Assembly (NCBI GenBank): GCA_938014865.1
Contig: CALLQJ010000350.1
Span: 1-32,000 of the forward strand
Length of the DNA stretch: 32,000 nt
Reading direction: 5' to 3'
Source: an uncultured Fastidiosipila sp.
GTDB lineage: Bacteria; Bacillota; Clostridia; Saccharofermentanales; Fastidiosipilaceae
Positions 5,292-32,000 of the stretch are shown here, piece after piece. The notes under the pieces are model-generated. The model saw only the letters and a list, made by a program, of their open reading frames with translations, did not search any database and was not told where the DNA came from. How positions within the stretch are numbered: the first letter of the stretch is position 1; the number at the start of each line of letters is the position of its first letter. A program made the translations under genes and the position numbers.

Positions 5292-6242
5292 TTAAATCCT
5301 GAACGCCTTTTTCCAGTTCCCATAATCCGACTTAAAATTATTCGCCTTCTTCAGCATGATGGCCCGTCTCGTGTTCGTCTTCCCGTCCACCTTGTAGTCC
5401 TTCCCCTCCATCTGGCGCTTCGCCAGGTCATGAAAGTCCACCTCAAGTCCGATCTGCTCCTTCTGAAAAGCCCTATAATACATGCCCGAAACCCAGGTCC
5501 TCTGATAGGTAAGTTTCGCACCCTCCGCCGCTTCCAGCCCGTCCTTCGTTTTCCGGGATATAATGACCCGGAAAGACTGCAGCTGAAGGGTCTCATTCAT
5601 GCCCCGAATCAGGCTTGTGCCAGAGGCACGTTTCTTCTTGATATCACTCTTGTAATTCGGATGTTTGAAAACAAATTCCTTCAATTTTGAAGCTTTTTTC
5701 AAGGCCGGCAGCGCTTCGCGGTAAATCGGGTAAGTCCTTCCGTTCACAATAATCGACGCAGTTTTTAAATCGAGCGACTTCGCCGTCACATCAAAAACGT
5801 CCTCTTCCGGCAAACCGAAAAAAGCCAGCCAAAAATAACACCTGTACACGATGTCCACAGTCTCTTCGGAAACCGGGTCAAAGATTTTATTTAAATACCA
5901 TTCCAGGTGCACGGGGTTAGCCACCATAAGCCGGCGCATCTTTTCCGTATTCTCCGGGTTTATTTTGAAAAAATTGTCGTTCGCTCCCGGCACATCATTG
6001 TCCAGACACCACCTTGTATAATCATTCAGAACAAAGATGCGCGGGTTCCTGTCCCAATATCGCAGCCCCATAATGTCTTCGGCCATTGTCTCGAGTTCCT
6101 CAACGGATCTGCTGCAGAGGTCTGCGCCCCACTTTTCTTCATATTCACCGGTCGCCTCAAAGAGCGTGATGCAGTATTCTTTTGTGCTTTTTTTGTCTGT
6201 GTAATAGTCAATAAATTTTCTTTTTGCATCTGCATTAAACAT
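5292..6242 (-). CDS. Integrase-fold protein of the MrpR/YopR-like (mobile-element associated) type
   Basis: The listed 411-aa ORF has a low-complexity, implausible N-terminus. ATG 6242 is preceded by AAAGGAG, which gives a 316-aa protein starting 'MFNADAKRKFIDYYTDKK...EEKWGADLC'. The pattern '...RRLMVANPVHLEWYL...VDIVYRCYFWLAFFGLPEEDV...YREALPALKKA...FKHPNY...DYGNWKKAFRI' matches, from memory, a family common on Clostridia mobile elements. That family is annotated as phage lytic-cycle repressor MrpR or integrase-like. Confidence 0.5.
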   Translation of the reverse strand: MFNADAKRKFIDYYTDKKSTKEYCITLFEATGEYEEKWGADLCSRSVEELETMAEDIMGLRYWDRNPRIFVLNDYTRWCLDNDVPGANDNFFKINPENTEKMRRLMVANPVHLEWYLNKIFDPVSEETVDIVYRCYFWLAFFGLPEEDVFDVTAKSLDLKTASIIVNGRTYPIYREALPALKKASKLKEFVFKHPNYKSDIKKKRASGTSLIRGMNETLQLQSFRVIISRKTKDGLEAAEGAKLTYQRTWVSGMYYRAFQKEQIGLEVDFHDLAKRQMEGKDYKVDGKTNTRRAIMLKKANNFKSDYGNWKKAFRI

Positions 6243-6498
6243 CCGTTTTGCTCCTTTGAATCTCAGACATACATTCCGCGATCCTGAAGCCGGGCTTTTG
6301 CTGCCGCTTCGGGAGGAATCGGAAGAATTGTTCTGCTTCCCATGACGCAGAAACATCCTTTCGTTCGTATGATAATCTTTCGTTATCACTATTATAAAAG
6401 TAATTTGTCTTTTTCGCTCTTTAAATTTGAAAATTCTAAGATTCCGCAGGAATGAAAATGCAAAAGGGCTCGCAAGAAAAGCCCTCTCAAAATTGCCA

Positions 6499-6540
6499 TA
6501 AAAAAATCTGTCGAAGCTTCCCCCCACAAAAGCTCGACAG
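6499..6540 (-). terminator. Rho-independent terminator of the ABC/VOC operon
   Basis: On the minus strand the sequence reads ctgtcgagctt-ttgtgggggg-aagcttcgacag followed by attttttta. The plus-strand arms are 6508-6519 and 6530-6540, with an A-run at 6499-6506. A second weaker hairpin (agggct/agccct, 6465-6486) follows. Confidence 0.6.
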
Positions 6541-6600
6541 ACCTATTTCATTTTACAATGCTAAAACTGATGATTCTGTATCAAATGTACGAATTCTAAT

Positions 6601-7074
6601 TTAATCTCCGAAATTTTCCAAAAGTTCCACCCGGCATTTCAAAAGATCAAAGGCATCGAGGTAAGCATACTTCCCCGATCCGTCTCCGTAAAAGCCCTCC
6701 TGTTCCAAAACCATGCCGAGTTTCTCACACTCGGCCACCGTCTCATCAATGCTGTCCACGACGAAGGCAATGTGGTGGATGCCCTCCCCGTATTTATCGA
6801 GATGATCGCGCCAGACCGAAGGCTTGTCATTCGGCTCAATCAGCTCAAGCTGCACGCCGTCCGACAAATTGAAAAACGCCAATTTACTCGCTGCTTCCGG
6901 GGCAGGCTCCCCAAAGACTTTCGTTTTCGTAATCGCATAATCCCCGTTAGGATTCGCCTCCGCCGGCTCACAGCCGAAAATCATCGCATAATTCCGGCTC
7001 GCATTCTCAATGTCATGCACGACAAAACCGACCTGTGTAAATCTCGCTTGATCCAGAATTTTTTGTTTGTTCAT
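6601..7074 (-). CDS. VOC (glyoxalase/bleomycin-resistance/methylmalonyl-CoA-epimerase-like) family protein
   Basis: 157 aa counted from ATG 7074. The listed start at 7143 would overlap the upstream permease. Paired beta-alpha-beta-beta-beta signatures are present: 'QVGFVVHDIENA' and 'GIHHIAFVVDSIDE', with His/Glu metal ligands. The start is only 4 nt after the permease stop (7079). Confidence 0.75.
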   Translation of the reverse strand: MNKQKILDQARFTQVGFVVHDIENASRNYAMIFGCEPAEANPNGDYAITKTKVFGEPAPEAASKLAFFNLSDGVQLELIEPNDKPSVWRDHLDKYGEGIHHIAFVVDSIDETVAECEKLGMVLEQEGFYGDGSGKYAYLDAFDLLKCRVELLENFGD

Positions 7075-7078
7075 GTTT

Positions 7079-7939
7079 TTATCCTTTAATCGCACCCATG
7101 GTAAGTCCGCTAACAATCTGATTACTGAACATAGAATACACAATAATTGTCGGCAAAACAGCTATAACAATAGCAGCAAACATTTGGACATAATTTGTAG
7201 CATAAGGACCCACAAAATACGTTAATGTTACCGGCAAAGTTTTCTTCATAGGATCAGAAATAAATACCATCGCAACCAAAAGCTCGTTCCATGTCGCAAC
7301 AAAACTCATCAGTCCGGTTACAAAAAGACCGGTTTTTACCAGCGGCAAAGCTATATTGAAAAATATTCTGTAGATTGAACATCCATCAATACAAGCAGCC
7401 TCAAAAATTTCACGAGGCATGCTCCTGAAAAAACCCACCAAAATAAAAATAGTTATAGGAAGAGCAAATGTTATATAGGGCAACATTAATCCGCCGAGTG
7501 AGTTAGTAAGACCAATTTTTGAAAAAACAACAAATAAAGGAATTAAAATACAATGCACCGGCACCATCATCCCGATCATAAAATAGATCAATGCAGCTCC
7601 TGATAATTTCCACTTCATCCTTGCAATCCCGAATGCTGCCATAGCACCGAAAAGCAAACTCACAATTAAGGTGACCGTACATACAACAAACGAATTTTTA
7701 AGTGCAACACCTAACTTTCCTGTATTCCAGGCAAATATATAATTTCCCAGCTGCCAAACTTCCGGCAATCCGAAAGGATTAGAAAAAACTTCAGCGTTTG
7801 TCTTGAATGAAACCAGCACAATCCAAAGCAGGGGCAGGACATATACGGCTGCCAACAATGTCAATATTATATAGATTATCGGTGTAGAGAGACGGACCTT
7901 GTTCCTCTTATTATTTTTACTTATATTTTTACCAGTCAT
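7079..7939 (-). CDS. Carbohydrate ABC transporter permease (MalG/binding-protein-dependent family)
   Basis: Six predicted TM segments and the EAA loop 'EAACIDGCSIYRIFFNIALPLVKTG'. The start is set to ATG 7939, with GAGGAG upstream, just after the stop of the preceding permease at 7953. Confidence 0.88.
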   Translation of the reverse strand: MTGKNISKNNKRNKVRLSTPIIYIILTLLAAVYVLPLLWIVLVSFKTNAEVFSNPFGLPEVWQLGNYIFAWNTGKLGVALKNSFVVCTVTLIVSLLFGAMAAFGIARMKWKLSGAALIYFMIGMMVPVHCILIPLFVVFSKIGLTNSLGGLMLPYITFALPITIFILVGFFRSMPREIFEAACIDGCSIYRIFFNIALPLVKTGLFVTGLMSFVATWNELLVAMVFISDPMKKTLPVTLTYFVGPYATNYVQMFAAIVIAVLPTIIVYSMFSNQIVSGLTMGAIKG

Positions 7940-25006: not shown

Positions 25007-26059
25007 ATGAAAGTCGGGTGTTTTATGAACAAAAAACGTGTCACCATGCAAGATATAGCGGATACCTGCGGATTATCACGAAATACAGTTTCAAAAGTTT
25101 TCAATCAGCGCGGTTCGGTTAAAGACTCCACCAGAGAGCTTGTTCTGGAGACCGCACAAGCGCTAGGCTACTACGTCCCTAATCTTTCTGCCGCCAGCTT
25201 TTCTGAACCTTCCGGCAGCAGTATTGCCTTACTTACAGGAAATATGCCGGTCAATTATCATTTCGCCGCTTATTTATTCACGTCTTTCACTGATCAGGTA
25301 AGCCGCGCCGGTTACACCCTTAAAATATTTGAAATTACAGCTGAAGAAATGCAGGAAAAACGCTTGCCTCTGCATTTTATTACGCAAGAGACTGCCGGTA
25401 TTATTTGCATTGAATTGTTTGACGCAGACTACTTGGAGATGCTCTGCGGTTTAGGCATACCGACCGTCTCCATTGACAGCACAACTGATGCTTTATCAGA
25501 AATTATGCATTGTGATTTTGTCGCAATGGAAAATATTGCCGGAAGCACATCACTTGTCCGTCATTTAACGGATCAAGGCATAAAAGAAATTGGTTTTGTC
25601 GGAGATATTAAACATTGCGGCTCGTTCTATGAACGCTGGCTTGGCTATATTGGCGGCTTAGATGATGCAGGGCTTTCGCTTAACAAGGATTGCTGTATTT
25701 TAGAAAAGGATAACTTACCTTACGGAGATCCTGATTGGCTTTTGCAAGAGCTGAACAAGCTTTCCGTTTTTCCTGAGGCCTTCATATGCGCCAATGATTA
25801 TATTGCACTGAACCTCATGACTGCTCTGAAGAAAAAGGGCCTGGCCATACCGGACGATGTTTTAATTGCCGGTTTTGACGGCATACCGCAAACTGCCATT
25901 ACAGATCCCCCGCTTACAACAGTCAATATTCCGGGCGAATACATCAGCAATCTTACCGCCGATATGCTCATCAAGCGCATTAAAAATCCGCAGCTGCCGT
26001 TCATCTGGACTCGTGTAAAGACGACACCTGAGTTTCGCAAAAGCACAGAAAAGCAATAA
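25007..26059 (+). CDS. LacI family transcriptional regulator
   Basis: N-terminal HTH 'VTMQDIADTCGLSRNTVSKVFN' plus a periplasmic-binding-protein-like sugar-sensing body ('FICANDYIALNLMTALKKKGLAIPDDVLIAGFDG'). The start is either ATG 25007 (GAGG 8 nt upstream) or ATG 25025 ('MNKKRVTMQDIA', which gives the more typical length). Confidence 0.88.
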   Translation: MKVGCFMNKKRVTMQDIADTCGLSRNTVSKVFNQRGSVKDSTRELVLETAQALGYYVPNLSAASFSEPSGSSIALLTGNMPVNYHFAAYLFTSFTDQVSRAGYTLKIFEITAEEMQEKRLPLHFITQETAGIICIELFDADYLEMLCGLGIPTVSIDSTTDALSEIMHCDFVAMENIAGSTSLVRHLTDQGIKEIGFVGDIKHCGSFYERWLGYIGGLDDAGLSLNKDCCILEKDNLPYGDPDWLLQELNKLSVFPEAFICANDYIALNLMTALKKKGLAIPDDVLIAGFDGIPQTAITDPPLTTVNIPGEYISNLTADMLIKRIKNPQLPFIWTRVKTTPEFRKSTEKQ

Positions 26060-26235
26060 AACACTGTGTTCATATTCAGCTTTGAGTATCGCACTAAAGT
26101 AAGGGCTCCGGCAGACTCGATAAAAGCCCTCCGGGGGTATAGCTCGAGCGTCTGCTTAATGCAGTCTAAGTGGTATAAAGAGTCGGAAATATCAAATTCT
26201 GCTAAAATTAAAGAAATACATTTTCGGAGGCAGTT

Positions 26236-26595
26236 ATGGACTCCATTAAAGAAGCCGCTAAAATAGTAAAAGAATTTTGTGAAGCAAGAGACTGGGATCA
26301 ATATCACAATCCTAAGGATCTGGCCATCGGTCTGAGCACCGAAGCCAATGAACTGCTGGATATATTCCGCTTTCAGTCTCAAGAAGATATGGATCAGATC
26401 ATGAGCGATCCTGCTAAACGCGAAGAAGTTTCGCAGGAACTCGGTGATATCTTCTTTTTTCTGCTGCGCTTTGCTCAGATGAATCACTTTGATCTCTTTG
26501 AAGCGTTACAAGACAAAGTCAAGTTAAACGATCGGAAGTATCCGGTAGAAAAAGCCAAAGGCAAAAATTACAGATACAAAGATCTGCAGCATTGA
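26236..26595 (+). CDS. MazG-like (all-alpha) nucleoside triphosphate pyrophosphohydrolase
   Basis: 119 aa. 'FCEARDWDQYHNPKDLAIGLSTEANELLDIF' and 'EVSQELGDIFFFLLRFA' are the two acidic helices (E-x-x-E, E-x-x-D) typical of small MazG/dCTPase-type enzymes. GGAGG sits 7 nt upstream of ATG 26236. Confidence 0.8.
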   Translation: MDSIKEAAKIVKEFCEARDWDQYHNPKDLAIGLSTEANELLDIFRFQSQEDMDQIMSDPAKREEVSQELGDIFFFLLRFAQMNHFDLFEALQDKVKLNDRKYPVEKAKGKNYRYKDLQH

Positions 26596-26619
26596 TTTTT
26601 TAAGAAATGTGTGTGCGCG

Positions 26620-28569
26620 ATGATTCTTTACAGTTCAAATTTAGACGAATTCAAATACAATGTAGATACGAATCAAATAACCGAAGAAATCGAGCGGGCT
26701 TTTTTCAGCGGACTCGGATACCGTCCGAGCCCCGGCGAAGTTATGTCCTGGAATAACTCACTGCGGTATATGGAAACTGCAACACGGCTCGCCAGGCTGC
26801 CGGACTCATGCGGTGTGCTCATTGAATACAAAATTCCATCTACCAGCAAACGTATTGATTTTATGCTCACAGGTCAGGATAATCGCGGGAATGACAATTT
26901 TGTACTTGTTGAATTAAAACAATGGACTGAGGCAACACAGTCTTCGTCCTCTCGCCAGCTTGTCAATACCTTTGTCGGCAGAGACTACCGCGATGTCCCG
27001 CATCCTTCTGTTCAAGCAGATTCCTACTGTGAATTTCTGTCTAATATGAACGAATCCATTCGCCAGCAAAATATCTTAGGACATGCTTGTGCCTATCTAC
27101 ATAACTACAATAAAAAAGATCCGGAACCTCTCCTTGCAGACGAATTCGTACAGGTAACCGAGAAAGTTCCGGTGTTTTTCCGTAAAGACACAGAAAAATT
27201 TCAGCGTTTTCTTAAGCAATATCTTTCTAACGGCAATGGCGAAAGCACAAAATATTACATTGAAAACGGCAGGCTCAAGCCCTCAAAGCAGCTGATCGAC
27301 GCTGTAACATCCTTATTTAAAGGCAATGATGAGTTTATCTTGCTCGACGAACAGATCGTCGCCTACGAAACCATCGTTCAGCAGGCCCTCAAACCCGGCG
27401 AAGGTAAAAAAGTGATCGTTGTTGAAGGCGGGCCGGGAACAGGGAAATCCGTCGTTTCGATGCACGTATTTCGAGAAATGCTCGAACACGGTATGAACGT
27501 ACATTTTGTTGCACCCAACCAAGCCTTCCGCTCTGCTATCGTAGACAAGCTGTTTAAAGACGGCTTTCAGACAAAAAAGTACATTACGAATCTTTTCAAA
27601 GGCTCCGGAGGCTTCATAAATGCCCCTTATAATTTCTTTGATGCCTTAATCGTAGACGAAGCCCATCGCCTGAAAGATAAAGGCACTTATGGTTACAGCG
27701 GAGAGAATCAAATTAAAGATATCGTTAAGGCGAGCAAGCTCTCTGTTTTCTTCATTGATGATGAGCAGCAAATTCGGCCGGACGACGTAGGATCAACCAA
27801 AGAAATTTATAAATACGCCGAAATGTATAATGCACATATTTCACACCTTAAACTCAAAGCCCAGTTCCGCTGCGCCGGTGCTGAAGGCTATGTCCGCTGG
27901 ATATCCGATGTACTGCAGCTTGAATCAAATGCCAATGCGGAAGGCTGGGATCAGGGCGATTTTGAATTCGAAATTTTTGATAATCCGCATGATGTGACAA
28001 ACAAAATTGAAGCGCATCAAAAAAATGGTTTCAGTGCAAGAACCACTGCCGGCTATGCCTGGCCTTGGACAAAGACCGGCAATCCGGATGCTCAAATAAA
28101 GGATGTCGTCATAGAAGAATTTGACTTTGCCAGACCTTGGAACACCCGCAGCCCGTCTAAAATCTGGGCAAGAGATGAAGAATGTGCCCAACAGATTGGC
28201 TGCATTCACACTTGCCAAGGTCTTGAATTTGATTATATCGGCGTCATCTTCGGGAAAGAAATACGCTTCAACCCGAAAACTCAAAAGATTTATGCTGATA
28301 TCAAGGAATACAAAGACCGAAACGGCAAAAAGAACTTGAAAAACAATCCTGAAGAATTAACCCGCTACATTAAAAACATTTATAAAGTCTTGTGTACCCG
28401 CGGCATGAAGGGCTGCTATCTTTATATATCAGACCCGGATCTCAATGTGTATTTCAAGAATCGTCTGGCTGCTGCACGCAGAAACCGAGACGAGATTTCC
28501 TATGCATTCCCGGACAAAGAAATGTGGAAGGTTGCGGAGGATAATTCTGATGAGGATTCAAGGGATTAG
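26620..28569 (+). CDS. DUF2075 / Schlafen-group-3-type P-loop helicase with an N-terminal PD-(D/E)xK nuclease-like module
   Basis: The start is probably ATG 26620 ('MILYSSNLDEF...'). The listed GTG 26611 is an alternative. Nuclease-like core: 'IEYKIP...RIDFMLTG...FVLVELKQW'. Walker A 'GGPGTGKS' is at 27427-27450, 'IVDEAHRL' at about 27649-27672, and an SF1 motif-VI-like 'CIHTCQGLEFDYIGVIFG' follows. The gene starts 24 nt after the MazG-like gene. Confidence 0.75.
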   Translation: MILYSSNLDEFKYNVDTNQITEEIERAFFSGLGYRPSPGEVMSWNNSLRYMETATRLARLPDSCGVLIEYKIPSTSKRIDFMLTGQDNRGNDNFVLVELKQWTEATQSSSSRQLVNTFVGRDYRDVPHPSVQADSYCEFLSNMNESIRQQNILGHACAYLHNYNKKDPEPLLADEFVQVTEKVPVFFRKDTEKFQRFLKQYLSNGNGESTKYYIENGRLKPSKQLIDAVTSLFKGNDEFILLDEQIVAYETIVQQALKPGEGKKVIVVEGGPGTGKSVVSMHVFREMLEHGMNVHFVAPNQAFRSAIVDKLFKDGFQTKKYITNLFKGSGGFINAPYNFFDALIVDEAHRLKDKGTYGYSGENQIKDIVKASKLSVFFIDDEQQIRPDDVGSTKEIYKYAEMYNAHISHLKLKAQFRCAGAEGYVRWISDVLQLESNANAEGWDQGDFEFEIFDNPHDVTNKIEAHQKNGFSARTTAGYAWPWTKTGNPDAQIKDVVIEEFDFARPWNTRSPSKIWARDEECAQQIGCIHTCQGLEFDYIGVIFGKEIRFNPKTQKIYADIKEYKDRNGKKNLKNNPEELTRYIKNIYKVLCTRGMKGCYLYISDPDLNVYFKNRLAAARRNRDEISYAFPDKEMWKVAEDNSDEDSRD

Positions 28570-28763
28570 TGGAGTAATTTAATTCTTACTGATGGTTTTT
28601 TGCAGAGTATGGTAAGTCTGATTTTATAGCTGCTGTTTAGGCCGGTCATGATTAAAATACGTGATTGTAGTACGAGATCTCGAGGCACATGTATCAGGTA
28701 AATGACAACGTATATTGTATTATTGAACTACAAACGTAAGACCACTAATTAAATATTTATATG

Positions 28764-30251
28764 CTACACACCTATCCCTCTAACTTTCAAATCAGGTAAC
28801 CTTTTTCCTTTGTATTCAACATCCAATAAGCCAAGTTGATATTTGATTGTTTTTCTCATTTGATATGCTCTTCTAAAACAATATGTTTCAAATTCAATCG
28901 GATTAATATCTTTTGCATCCTGAACATGCGGAAATAAAAGTTTTAAGTACGCTGTTGATATCCGTTTAACCGCCTCTGTATCGCGGGTATCTGCACCTTT
29001 AGGTACAATAATCAGATCATCTACCACACTTCTATAAGTCATGTCCGAGCGCAATTCGTGAAGAATAGAACAGAAATATTCTGAATTTAGTGCCCAACCA
29101 TTAATTTTTAGATCATCGTTCATTCTAGGTATGTTCCACCCTTTTATAAAGCCGTGAAATCTTTCTATTAACGCCGATTCATGAAAGACTTCCGGCAACT
29201 CTAAAAACATATTCGACCAACCATCCTGATCCATGATCTCTTGACTAATATTGCCGCATAATATAACTCCGGCATCAGCAATACCTTTATAATCGCCTAC
29301 CGTAAATGTACCTTGCTCAAGATATCCCTTTAAAGCAGCTCTCATCTCATCTGTGTTACTAAATGAAATGGTCTGTACTTCGTCTAACGTTATGAAATCA
29401 TTACCACCTACGAGCCCTACCTGACGTTTCGATATATCATAAAACATTTTTGCTCTAGACATTACTCCGCCACTTGATAACCAACCAAAACGGCTTACAT
29501 TACCGAATAGATATGATTTACCTGTTCCCTTCGGAGCTAATTCAATTAAGTTTAGACGTTTTTCCGCAAACGGTAATAATCGAGTAATCATGGTGAGTTT
29601 CTCTTCAATTGTCTTATATCCATTTGCATTATAATCAACAGCTCCGAGAACGATGTCTATCCATTCACTTATCGAGAATTCTTGACGAGCCTCCTTGAAG
29701 TAGTCAAGGTTTATGTTATAAGGGCAGAAATTATTGAAAGAAATTAACTTTATCTTTCCATCATTCGACTTGCTTTTAGAAGAGCCTTGAAATGAAGGGA
29801 TAAATTCTGCTTCTTGTGAAGATCTGTATCCCAATTCGACCATTCCCCAAATTTCTTTTCCTTTTACTAATTCATCTTTATAAGATGACCAAACATCGTC
29901 TTCTATTATGGTCTGTTTGTAGTCCAAGCCAAAATCAGGAAGTGCAAAAGAGACTTCACCTGTTTTAATGTCAATATCTACAGAAATTTTTGCAAGAAAC
30001 TTTACGCGTTCACCTTCAACAATAATTCGATCTTTTATTGCAATCCAATCGTCTTTTCTGGGAATATATCTTTTTACAAATCTAAGTAACTCATCCTGAT
30101 CAAAGTATCCTGTATCATCTTGAAATTTTTTCAATAACCAATCACGCATAAAGGAAGGCAAGCTTAACGCAGAGAAAAAATTGGTTTTTGATAAGTCCTT
30201 AAATACCACCATCTCATCAAAGCAGTCTCTTAACTTTTTTGTTGCTGACAT
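28764..30251 (-). CDS. brxL: BrxL-like AAA+ ATPase (short form, no room for the Lon-protease-like C-terminal domain)
   Basis: 495 aa. The N-terminal region ('VVFKDLSK...FMRDWLLKKF...RYIPRKDDW...VKFLAKISVDID') follows the BrxL N-domain pattern as I remember it. Walker A 'LAPKGTGKS' is at 29514-29537 and Walker B is 'FITLDEVQ'. ATG 30251 directly abuts the pglZ stop (TAGATG), with AAGGAG upstream. Confidence 0.65.
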   Translation of the reverse strand: MSATKKLRDCFDEMVVFKDLSKTNFFSALSLPSFMRDWLLKKFQDDTGYFDQDELLRFVKRYIPRKDDWIAIKDRIIVEGERVKFLAKISVDIDIKTGEVSFALPDFGLDYKQTIIEDDVWSSYKDELVKGKEIWGMVELGYRSSQEAEFIPSFQGSSKSKSNDGKIKLISFNNFCPYNINLDYFKEARQEFSISEWIDIVLGAVDYNANGYKTIEEKLTMITRLLPFAEKRLNLIELAPKGTGKSYLFGNVSRFGWLSSGGVMSRAKMFYDISKRQVGLVGGNDFITLDEVQTISFSNTDEMRAALKGYLEQGTFTVGDYKGIADAGVILCGNISQEIMDQDGWSNMFLELPEVFHESALIERFHGFIKGWNIPRMNDDLKINGWALNSEYFCSILHELRSDMTYRSVVDDLIIVPKGADTRDTEAVKRISTAYLKLLFPHVQDAKDINPIEFETYCFRRAYQMRKTIKYQLGLLDVEYKGKRLPDLKVRGIGV

Positions 30252-32000
30252 CTAAATCTCCTTAAAAAAATCATCAAAACTCTCATTTATACTGCCGACT
30301 TTACTTTTTACTCTAATTTCCGAATCAAATATCTTGTTATCGCCATCATATATTTCGATCTCATACTGTCCCGGCTTTGTAATAGAATCAATATTTACGG
30401 TATAATGATTCTCGTATTGAAATTCTGCTCGATACCGTTTTTTCTTATATAATATGTCGACTTTATTTGTAAAATTTACATAGGATATGTAAATCGACAG
30501 AGTAATACCATTTCTTCTATCAGGATAAATACCATCTTTATTTAAAATCAGTACTTTTATTTCTTTTTGTTTTTTCAGCTTTAAAGTTATAACCGGTATG
30601 ACGACCTCTTCCAGAGTTGCTCCTCCGTGAGTCTCTATTTTTGCAGCCCTGCTGCCTTTAAAGCGTTTATAATCTGCCAACACCCAATATCCATTTTCTT
30701 TGAGTGCATATGATATATCAGCTCCGGGTACTGTTTTACAACATCTTCCCGAATGCTCGCCTTTACTTTCATAAACATATTTGTCTTCATCGTTGTACAA
30801 TACAGCCAATCTGGAAGCTCCATGATCACTTGCTATTGTAACCGCTTGTGATTGTTGAGTTTGAAGATCCGAAGCTATTTTCTCTATTACTTCTTGAATT
30901 AAGTCAATTTCGGAAGCCAAATATGAGGGATCATCCCCACTATACTGTCTTTTCGTTTTTCCATGTTTGATCAAATCTAAATCTTTAATATCTGCTTTTT
31001 TATTCCCGGGCCAAGAATCAAAAAACGATCTATTTATGCTTGTTAAAGTTGGTAAATCTGCACGACAAATTTGAATCTCTATAAGCAGATCATTCTTTTC
31101 AGCCAGATCTGATATTAATGATAAATATTCAACCCCGAGAGAATCTATCCAGAAAAGGCAAGTTGAGTTTTTGTCTTCAATTTTTCTTAAAACATTATCT
31201 CTGGTTTCTAGTTTTGAATATATTGCGTTGTCAGAATATTTATCTACCAGAGACAGAAACTTTGGGTCAATTGAGTTTTTGATTTTTTGAATTTTATATT
31301 TTTGAAAATAGTTAGTAAGATCATCAGATAAAACATCACAATCAAATACATATTCCTTCAGATATACATCTAAGGCAGGATAGATAATGGATAGCTCCTC
31401 GATATATCCATATTTTGAAACCCATTTTATTATTTCTTCTCTTTCAGCTAATGTATTGTCTGTATAACGATATATACTTTCTTTTGGATAAATCTTATTT
31501 TCTTTAATAAACAAATTAATATCATTTTTGCTGAAATTAGAAACTAAGGATTTTCGTTCATTATAAAACTTACTATATTCTTTGTGATTTGTAGGGATCG
31601 TAATTAATTTATTTAAAATATTTCTTTTTAAATCGTTGGATGTATTAGTTTGCTCTACTACTAAAGACAAATAATCATTCTTTATATTTCTTATATTTAA
31701 TTTTAAAAATATAAAGAATATCCAAGTTTTATATGACACGCCTTTTAATTTGCTATTTATGTTGCTTTGCCAATCGTCATCAATACCATATGTGCTATAA
31801 ATTTTCTCTAATGATCCATCATTTTTATTCAGCTCATCCAGTAAACGCTTCCATTGATCCGATGTACCATACTGCTCCGACAAGTTTAAATGATATAAAT
31901 CTTGTAATGCAGAATATGCATTTTCTATATTGTAAATTTGTAAATATGACTCTTCAAAAGTCAGGGCTGTATCAACATAATAATTATTATAATTTGTTTG
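30252..32000 (-). CDS. pglZ: PglZ-domain (alkaline-phosphatase superfamily) BREX protein, 5'-truncated by the window edge
   Basis: PglZ-type strings 'LFWIDSLGVEYLSLI' and 'TIASDHGASRL...HGG' are present. The listed start at 31883 is a TTG. My hand translation of 31884-32000 in the same frame found no stop (...QTNYNNYYVDTALTFEESYLQIYNIENAYSALQDLYHLN-), so the gene continues beyond 32000. Confidence 0.7.
   Translation of the reverse strand, partial: QTNYNNYYVDTALTFEESYLQIYNIENAYSALQDLYHLNLSEQYGTSDQWKRLLDELNKNDGSLEKIYSTYGIDDDWQSNINSKLKGVSYKTWIFFIFLKLNIRNIKNDYLSLVVEQTNTSNDLKRNILNKLITIPTNHKEYSKFYNERKSLVSNFSKNDINLFIKENKIYPKESIYRYTDNTLAEREEIIKWVSKYGYIEELSIIYPALDVYLKEYVFDCDVLSDDLTNYFQKYKIQKIKNSIDPKFLSLVDKYSDNAIYSKLETRDNVLRKIEDKNSTCLFWIDSLGVEYLSLISDLAEKNDLLIEIQICRADLPTLTSINRSFFDSWPGNKKADIKDLDLIKHGKTKRQYSGDDPSYLASEIDLIQEVIEKIASDLQTQQSQAVTIASDHGASRLAVLYNDEDKYVYESKGEHSGRCCKTVPGADISYALKENGYWVLADYKRFKGSRAAKIETHGGATLEEVVIPVITLKLKKQKEIKVLILNKDGIYPDRRNGITLSIYISYVNFTNKVDILYKKKRYRAEFQYENHYTVNIDSITKPGQYEIEIYDGDNKIFDSEIRVKSKVGSINESFDDFFKEI

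Follow-up and report, generated by a model that had tools for sequence, protein, structure and literature searches.

A gene pair in an uncultured Fastidiosipila and its predicted products

The window analyzed here is a stretch of 32,000 nucleotides (nt) from an uncultured Fastidiosipila sp. (contig CALLQJ010000350.1, positions 1 to 32,000 of the forward strand), towards the end of which lie two co-oriented genes: gene 1, which codes for a small MazG-like enzyme, and gene 2, which codes for a large protein combining a restriction-endonuclease-like head with a helicase domain of the type typified by the group-3 Schlafens (Table 1). A sequence-only reading of this DNA, made without database searches, had drawn attention to the pair as a candidate anti-phage module. 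It described two co-oriented open reading frames (ORFs) separated by 24 nt, with a dedicated GGAGG ahead of gene 1, placed between a LacI-linked sugar locus and the 3' end of a convergent BREX operon; all of this was recovered in our analysis. The gap of 24 nt presupposes the ATG at 26620 as the start of gene 2. While its mechanical ORF opens at a GTG at 26611 and runs to the stop at 28569, we set the true start at this ATG because 73 of the 73 aligned homologues begin with M-I-[LIV]-Y. The sequence-only reading had counted from the GTG; hence, all the gene 2 motifs that it named are present but its residue numbers are 3 too high, with its E72, D83, E101 and K103 being the E69, D80, E98 and K100 of the numbering used below.

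Gene 1 had been read as a MazG-type nucleoside triphosphate (NTP) pyrophosphohydrolase, and profile searches agree: it scores 40.2 bits against the Pfam MazG-like family PF12643 (cut-off 27), 23.5 bits against PF03819 (cut-off 22) and an E-value of 9e-11 against the PHROG pyrophosphatase. Further, its residues 5-117 align gap-free, over 113 residues, to DCTPP1/RS21-C6, the mammalian all-alpha dCTP pyrophosphatase (PDB 6sqw, 2a3q, 2oie; E 1e-17). Its predicted catalytic residues are E36, E39, D42, E68 and D71, four of which (E36, E39, E68 and D71) correspond in this alignment to E63, E66, E95 and D98 of DCTPP1, such that the metal-binding E-x-x-E...E-x-x-D signature is intact and all the metal-binding acidic residues are shared between the two proteins. 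Among 49 partner MazGs encoded elsewhere, the acidic residues are likewise retained in at least 98%. Given the intact catalytic residues and their conservation among the partners, gene 1 looks like an active enzyme. It differs from DCTPP1 in being bacterial and operon-linked to a nuclease-helicase, and its substrate is only predicted: the preference for dCTP or 5-modified dCTP is known for DCTPP1 alone (PMC7162842).

The larger product is anchored by its helicase domain, which belongs to the Pfam family PF09848 (SLFN-g3_helicase/DUF2075) with an E-value of 6e-93. The key residues of its Walker A motif, its DEAH box and its motif-VI-like element (Q533-G-x-E) are invariant across 73 homologues. 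When the AlphaFold model of the protein, with a predicted local distance difference test score (pLDDT) of 85.8, was searched with Foldseek, SLFN11 was recovered first, the other top matches being RecD2, RecD, Dna2, Dda and Upf1, all of the SF1B type. Thus, the DUF2075 helicase core with a P-loop and a DEAH motif that the sequence-only reading had recognized is upheld, and it can be placed in SF1B. For gene 2 and its head, single-sequence and profile searches of the PDB yielded nothing but designed repeat proteins of the pentatricopeptide and armadillo kinds, which we discarded as low-complexity artefacts. A longer form of the helicase with the same head, of about 790-820 amino acids (aa), is seen in three other loci (L013, 4139-6529; L062, 7992-10388; L077, 7932-10388). 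In the two of these that come from Halomonas (L062 and L077), a MazG-like match lies about 0.6 kilobases (kb) past the end of the helicase homology, with a MazG gene being called in L077 only.

No Pfam family matches the first 240 residues of gene 2. Nevertheless, this head displays three motifs, IEYKIP, RIDFML and VLVELKQW, carrying E69, D80 and the E98-L-K100 triad, which are invariant in the 73 homologues. The model of the head (pLDDT 87) comprises a helix (38-57), three strands (65-70, 79-86 and 92-100), a second helix (129-143) and a further strand (153-160); E69, D80 and E98-L-K100 fall in order on the three successive strands of this alpha-beta-beta-beta-alpha-beta core, which in the model is the classic arrangement of a restriction-endonuclease core. 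Fold searches with the head recovered weak matches only (E 0.009-0.8), among them the PD-(D/E)xK nucleases EcoO109I, Can2, EndoMS, SfsA, EcoT38I and XisH. Hence, of the earlier proposal of a restriction-endonuclease-like head, the order of the motifs and the topology fit, but no fold match is better than E 0.009; we consider a PD-(D/E)xK fold likely, though unconfirmed. A profile of the head matched 2542 representatives of 50%-identity clusters, and in every one of these the domain is N-terminal in a protein of about 620-650 or 790-815 residues. Therefore, the head is specific to the helicase family of gene 2.

Table 1. Features of the window, with the evidence on which each is placed
Feature	Position	Strand	Basis
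Gene 1 ribosome-binding site, GGAGG	26226-26230	+	direct reading of the sequence, 5 nt ahead of the ATG
Gene 1, DCTPP1-like MazG, all-alpha NTP pyrophosphohydrolase, 119 aa, ATG start	26236-26595	+	ORF, PF12643, PDB match
Gene 2, predicted nuclease-helicase with Nhi-like architecture, 649 aa	26620-28569	+	ORF; start from homologue alignments; AlphaFold model
Gene 2 N-terminal head, aa 1-240, restriction-endonuclease-like core followed by helical linker	26620-27339	+	invariant residues, model
E69 of the head	26824-26826	+	invariant residue
D80 of the head	26857-26859	+	invariant residue
E98-L-K100 of the head	26911-26919	+	invariant residues
Gene 2 DUF2075 / Schlafen-group-3-type SF1B helicase domain, aa 263-605	27406-28434	+	PF09848, Foldseek
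Walker A motif GGPGTGKS, aa 270-277	27427-27450	+	invariant key residues
DEAH (D346-H349), within VDEAHR	27655-27666	+	invariant key residues
Motif-VI-like QGLEFDY, aa 533-539	28216-28236	+	invariant key residues
LacI-family regulator, context only, end of polysaccharide-utilization locus	25007-26059	+	Pfam LacI/Peripla_BP on the identical gene in L081
BREX operon 3' end, context only, outside the module: BrxL 28764-30251; PglZ from 30252 past the window end	28764-32000	-	PADLOC

A conserved operon of bacteria and archaea

We assembled 80 loci coding for the helicase, each from a different species, of which 78 are informative in having enough upstream sequence. With identities of 38-51%, they span more than 10 bacterial phyla and two archaeal lineages (Methanobacteriales and Thermoplasmatales); the taxa represented include Bacillota, Bacteroidota, Gammaproteobacteria, Zetaproteobacteria, Desulfovibrio, Sphaerochaeta, Chloroflexota, Omnitrophota, groups of the candidate phyla radiation and Mycoplasmatota. 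The family is larger still, with at least 8000 clusters at 90% identity giving matches. In 47 of the 78 informative loci, the helicase has a MazG gene as its immediate neighbor on the same strand, directly upstream in 44 and directly downstream in 3; in 9 others MazG is 0.3-4.9 kb away on the same strand, and none was found in the remaining 22. Across 42 of the upstream-adjacent cases, stop and start codons share a 4-nt overlap in 16, whereas the gap between them measures 0-4 nt in 8 and 9-35 nt in 17. In all of the three closest relatives, independent gene calls place a PF12643 gene directly upstream of the helicase. Further, the pairwise identities of the MazGs and the helicases are correlated (Pearson r 0.57), pointing to a partial co-variation of the two proteins. 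Hence, MazG and the helicase constitute one conserved, translationally coupled operon, as had been expected when the pair was read as a single unit; the conservation of the adjacency in other genomes had been named beforehand as a test, and it is seen in most related loci. This operon, which is carried on plasmids in some genomes, has spread horizontally.

The association has distinct limits on either side. On the tree of the helicase, the loci without MazG, such as those of Paenibacillus and several Bacillaceae, group in patches, suggesting that MazG was lost secondarily. Viewed from the side of MazG, 70 informative metagenome loci found via this gene have the helicase adjacent in 25, nearby in 7 and not at all in 38. 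No common alternative partner was found in the latter 38 loci, many of which place MazG among housekeeping genes. Judged by these surroundings, MazG is a general house-cleaning enzyme recruited by the operon rather than a dedicated subunit of it. One metagenome contig (L111, 1075-1632) shows a MazG followed by a partial ORF, ending with the contig, that opens with a GIY-YIG-looking motif and reaches a P-loop (HGKPGTGK) at the contig end; because it is cut off there, no Pfam family matches this ORF, which might represent a GIY-YIG version of the partner helicase.

An origin of the module from phages was also considered and rejected: a relative occurs in only 4 of 50,697 phage records, and hence the module is not typically phage-borne. 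One record deposited as a phage genome, that of Microcystis phage Mwe-JY31 (PP438423; L082), has the MazG-helicase pair at 5657-7863 with 40% identity and a TPR protein ahead of it; the record is 22 kb in length, with none of its genes annotated beyond 'hypothetical'.

In the window itself, the pair directly adjoins the 3' end of the BREX operon, whose BrxL (E 4e-222) and PglZ (E 4e-147) were identified by PADLOC. As auxiliary nucleases are known in BREX loci (PMC12839542), one might ask if the pair is an accessory component of its neighbor. We consider this to be very improbable, and it is indeed already largely refuted. The pair is convergent, rather than co-oriented, with BREX; its guanine-cytosine (GC) content of 43-44% is host-like, as is that of the sugar locus, and exceeds the 27-37% of the BREX genes by 7-16 points; BrxL and PglZ are absent from all 80 other helicase loci; an independent contig (L081) shows the same LacI-MazG-helicase arrangement; and MazG goes unmentioned in a survey of BREX (PMC12839542). 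Given the opposite strand, the differing GC and the absence of BrxL and PglZ elsewhere, the BREX adjacency is local to this genome and the pair is not part of BREX. The composition of the window at large, with 39-45% GC outside BREX, suggests that BREX is a separately acquired island abutting the pair.

On its other side, the LacI-family regulator is preceded by genes for a PL8 lyase, GH88, GH32 and sugar transport, which make up the polysaccharide-utilization locus. A scan of positions 25900-28900 for promoters and terminators gave counts not above those of shuffled sequence, with no usable signal 3' of gene 2. Two ORFs on the reverse strand, situated at the distal end of this locus, are unrelated to the module: one has an MrpR-type recombinase core-binding domain (5292-6527) and the other a weak match to a condensation domain (1264-2616).

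Relationship to described systems

Although the sequence-only reading took the pair to be undescribed, specialists had already come upon it. Table S2 of Millman et al. 2022 (bioRxiv 10.1101/2022.05.11.491447) lists a candidate system termed 'Pyrophosphatase', in which a pyrophosphatase is paired with a DUF2075 protein, among 45 candidates picked by their defence-island signal. Its representative from Bacillus firmus LK28 (SG192) has both genes in the same order as in our window, a 98-aa pyrophosphatase followed by a 643-aa DUF2075 protein, with gene 1 being 36% identical to the former and gene 2 being 41% identical to the latter and colinear with it over the 399 residues available. It comes from another host lineage, and no name, textual description or validation was ever given for the candidate. 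The candidates of that study were cloned with their native promoters into Escherichia coli and Bacillus subtilis and assayed with 26 phages; the observed defence of SG192 is entered as 'x', i.e., none was seen, whereas the cloning of a second representative, SG193 from B. thuringiensis Lr3/2, failed. As its authors point out, unverified candidates may still defend under other conditions. Searches of the literature for DUF2075 together with MazG or pyrophosphohydrolase, and for Schlafen together with MazG, returned no paper naming or validating the pair. Likewise, a check for an existing PADLOC model covering both genes, proposed in advance, found none: gene 1 has no match among these models and gene 2 has partial matches only, to PDC-S41, AbiO and Nhi.

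Nhi itself, from Staphylococcus epidermidis (SERP2475; Bari et al. 2022), requires both its nuclease and its helicase residues, and limits the accumulation of phage DNA; one homologue was found to be toxic on induction (bioRxiv 10.1101/776245). Millman et al. 2022 further validated a single-gene 'Nhi-like' system from Bacillus cereus (SG141) with a nuclease-DUF2075 layout. Gene 2 resembles these in combining a PD-(D/E)xK-type N-terminal nuclease, as predicted for its head, with an SF1B helicase of the DUF2075 family within a single protein. However, Nhi and Nhi-like are single-gene systems, while the family of gene 2 usually has a MazG partner. Moreover, S. epidermidis Nhi bears a C-terminal glyoxalase/bleomycin-resistance-like domain (Glyas_Bleomycin-R), itself poorly conserved among Nhi homologues, which Pfam does not call in gene 2. 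At the sequence level, the PADLOC match to Nhi (60.7 bits) covers only residues 219-502, short of full-length membership in that family model; the identity to SG141 is 22%, in a BLASTP alignment (E 2e-5) confined to the linker and the early helicase; and the two heads have colinear nuclease motifs at an hhalign E-value of 0.027. Based on these distances, gene 2 is of the Nhi type by architecture, but is best assigned to a separate subfamily.

The eukaryotic group-3 Schlafens (SLFN11 and SLFN14) share the helicase family PF09848 with gene 2, as is also evident in SLFN11 being its top structural match. However, gene 2 lacks the Schlafen RNase core (AlbA_2) by Pfam and has the restriction-endonuclease-like head in its place. 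For the bacterial Schlafen defence systems reported in 2025-2026, that RNase domain, and not this helicase, is the defining feature. With the dCTP deaminase and dGTPase defence systems the pair may, by analogy, have in common the logic of an attack on the nucleotide pool, while gene 1 differs from them in enzyme family and chemistry, namely pyrophosphohydrolysis by an all-alpha MazG. Finally, DUF2075 genes were recorded beside DUF3427 modification-dependent enzymes by Lutz et al. 2019 (PMC6765204). This DUF3427-DUF2075 association recurs in our sample of loci; in contrast to what we find, the MazG partner went unnoted there, and no DUF3427 gene is present in our window.

Genomic neighborhoods and possible functions

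In line with the sequence-only reading, defence genes are often found close to the pair in other genomes. Genes coding for proteins with a PLD nuclease, an SF2 helicase and a DUF3427 module, which is the architecture of modification-dependent restriction enzymes, are neighbors of the DUF2075 gene in about 10 of the 80 loci, McrB-/McrC-like pairs in 5-7 and NUDIX hydrolases in 8. An all-alpha pyrophosphatase unrelated to the first, i.e., a second MazG type, is present in 4 loci, and 3 of these are without the first MazG. Recurrent neighbors also include Fic proteins and C5 methylases. A coarse Pfam survey of 116 neighbor proteins returned Fic, AAA_21, C5 methylase, PDDEXK_1 and Macro alongside housekeeping families, and PADLOC returned redundant methyltransferase models for the same proteins, with at most 2 members each.

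Several individual loci illustrate these linkages. In L020 (1007-8146) and L024 (4136-9959), a single strand codes for MazG, a 1041-aa DUF3427 protein, a NUDIX protein and, lastly, the DUF2075 nuclease-helicase; in L020 only, the second all-alpha pyrophosphatase and an HNH protein are inserted between the latter two. These two clusters accordingly bring together up to three different NTP pyrophosphatases with two nuclease-helicases. On a plasmid of Priestia aryabhattai (NZ_CP083270; L083, 6548-9866), the gene for a 355-aa MrcB_N protein, a McrB-like DNA-reader, overlaps that of MazG and is followed by that of the DUF2075 helicase, the operon being lodged in a dense defence island with Abc3C, restriction endonuclease, MutT and type I restriction-modification (R-M) genes. 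Elsewhere, a gene of the HEPN AbiU2 family is inserted between MazG and the helicase (L079, 5370-5933), while in L072 (4520-5014) and L074 (7517-8011) the two are separated by a 165-aa protein that matches no Pfam family. In some loci, MazG lies several kb from the helicase and adjoins another nuclease gene instead.

Against this backdrop, we propose, with about an even chance of being right, that the pair is a defence module in which a Nhi-like DNA-degrading enzyme is joined by an accessory MazG acting on the pool of dCTP or its modified forms; we hold any particular role for MazG with less confidence. Briefly, the mechanism might be as follows. Gene 2, most likely an ATP-driven SF1B helicase with its own PD-(D/E)xK-type nuclease, would be loaded onto foreign DNA undergoing replication and break it down, as suggested by the architecture that it shares with Nhi. 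Gene 1 would hydrolyze dCTP or 5-modified dCTP to the monophosphate. This might starve those phages that build modified-cytosine DNA; alternatively, it might keep salvaged modified nucleotides out of the host DNA, thereby sparing the cell from its own neighboring modification-dependent nucleases. DNA as the target, the substrate of MazG, the anti-phage role and the choice between these roles of MazG are all inferred. In sum, we see the pair as a Nhi-type nuclease-helicase with a nucleotide-pyrophosphatase partner, for which a role in defence is plausible.

A number of observations weigh against this proposal. The nuclease fold of the head lacks statistical confirmation, its best fold match having an E-value of 0.009, and the relationship to the validated SG141 is distant. 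About 28% of the helicase loci are without any MazG, and about half of the close relatives of MazG are without the helicase, in ordinary contexts. The neighbor counts given above are raw. In addition, SG192, the sole homologous pair to have been tested, conferred no defence. The pair has a host-like GC in this genome and some of its closest relatives lie among housekeeping genes: one of them, P0009, lies between a gene for an HhH-GPD glycosylase and ruvC/ruvA/ruvB, and another, P0007, lies beside gyrB/gyrA.

The last three of these observations, along with the occurrence of the MazG subfamily on its own in housekeeping contexts and the presence of Dna2 and RecD2 among the structural neighbors of the helicase, would also fit a role in genome maintenance. 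Here, MazG would clean non-canonical deoxynucleoside triphosphates (dNTPs) as DCTPP1 does, the nuclease-helicase would process damaged or stalled DNA in the manner of Dna2 or RecD2, and the two would form a mobile accessory repair module. We regard this as a serious rival, though a somewhat unlikely one, since the pair has a patchy distribution across domains of Life at 40-50% identity, is found on plasmids, shows recurrent linkage with Type IV restriction, R-M, Abi and Abc3C genes, and was picked by a screen for defence islands.

A different set of features bears on the possibility of a toxin/antidote-like abortive system, wherein a toxic nuclease-helicase would be restrained by MazG, either through binding or through removal of an activating nucleotide, until infection frees the nuclease to act on host and phage DNA alike. 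The order of the genes, with the small one first and translationally coupled to the large one, is what such a system might display, and the toxicity of the induced Nhi homologue and, anecdotally, the failure to clone SG193 point in the same direction. However, the helicase is evidently tolerated alone, given the 22 of 78 loci that lack MazG; the fully intact catalytic site of MazG favors an enzymatic over an inhibitory role; and the loci in which MazG sits beside another nuclease gene, several kb from the helicase, are hard to reconcile with an antidote. Hence, we consider this scenario to be improbable.

Returning to the defence module, the proposal admits a bolder and more specific version: the pair could be a widespread immune module directed against invaders with modified cytosines, in which MazG would destroy 5-modified dCTP while the Nhi-like enzyme would degrade the DNA of the invader. 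We deem this version unlikely as matters stand. If true, it would make the sanitation of the nucleotide pool a regular, conserved part of defence islands, and it would account for the null result that the Sorek lab obtained with the Bacillus homologue in heterologous hosts. The recurrent Type IV restriction genes, the NUDIX hydrolases and the second MazG type do point to modified-cytosine DNA and nucleotides, and thus offer a testable lead.

In conclusion, the helicase family considered here is large and mobile and spans bacteria and archaea, yet the one published test of it is a negative result in a supplementary table. If the pair is a repair module, it should leave the lists of defence candidates. 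If, on the other hand, its role is in defence, a dNTP pyrophosphohydrolase would join the known means by which the nucleotide pool is manipulated during infection, and nuclease-helicase immunity of the Nhi type would reach into a far larger clade.

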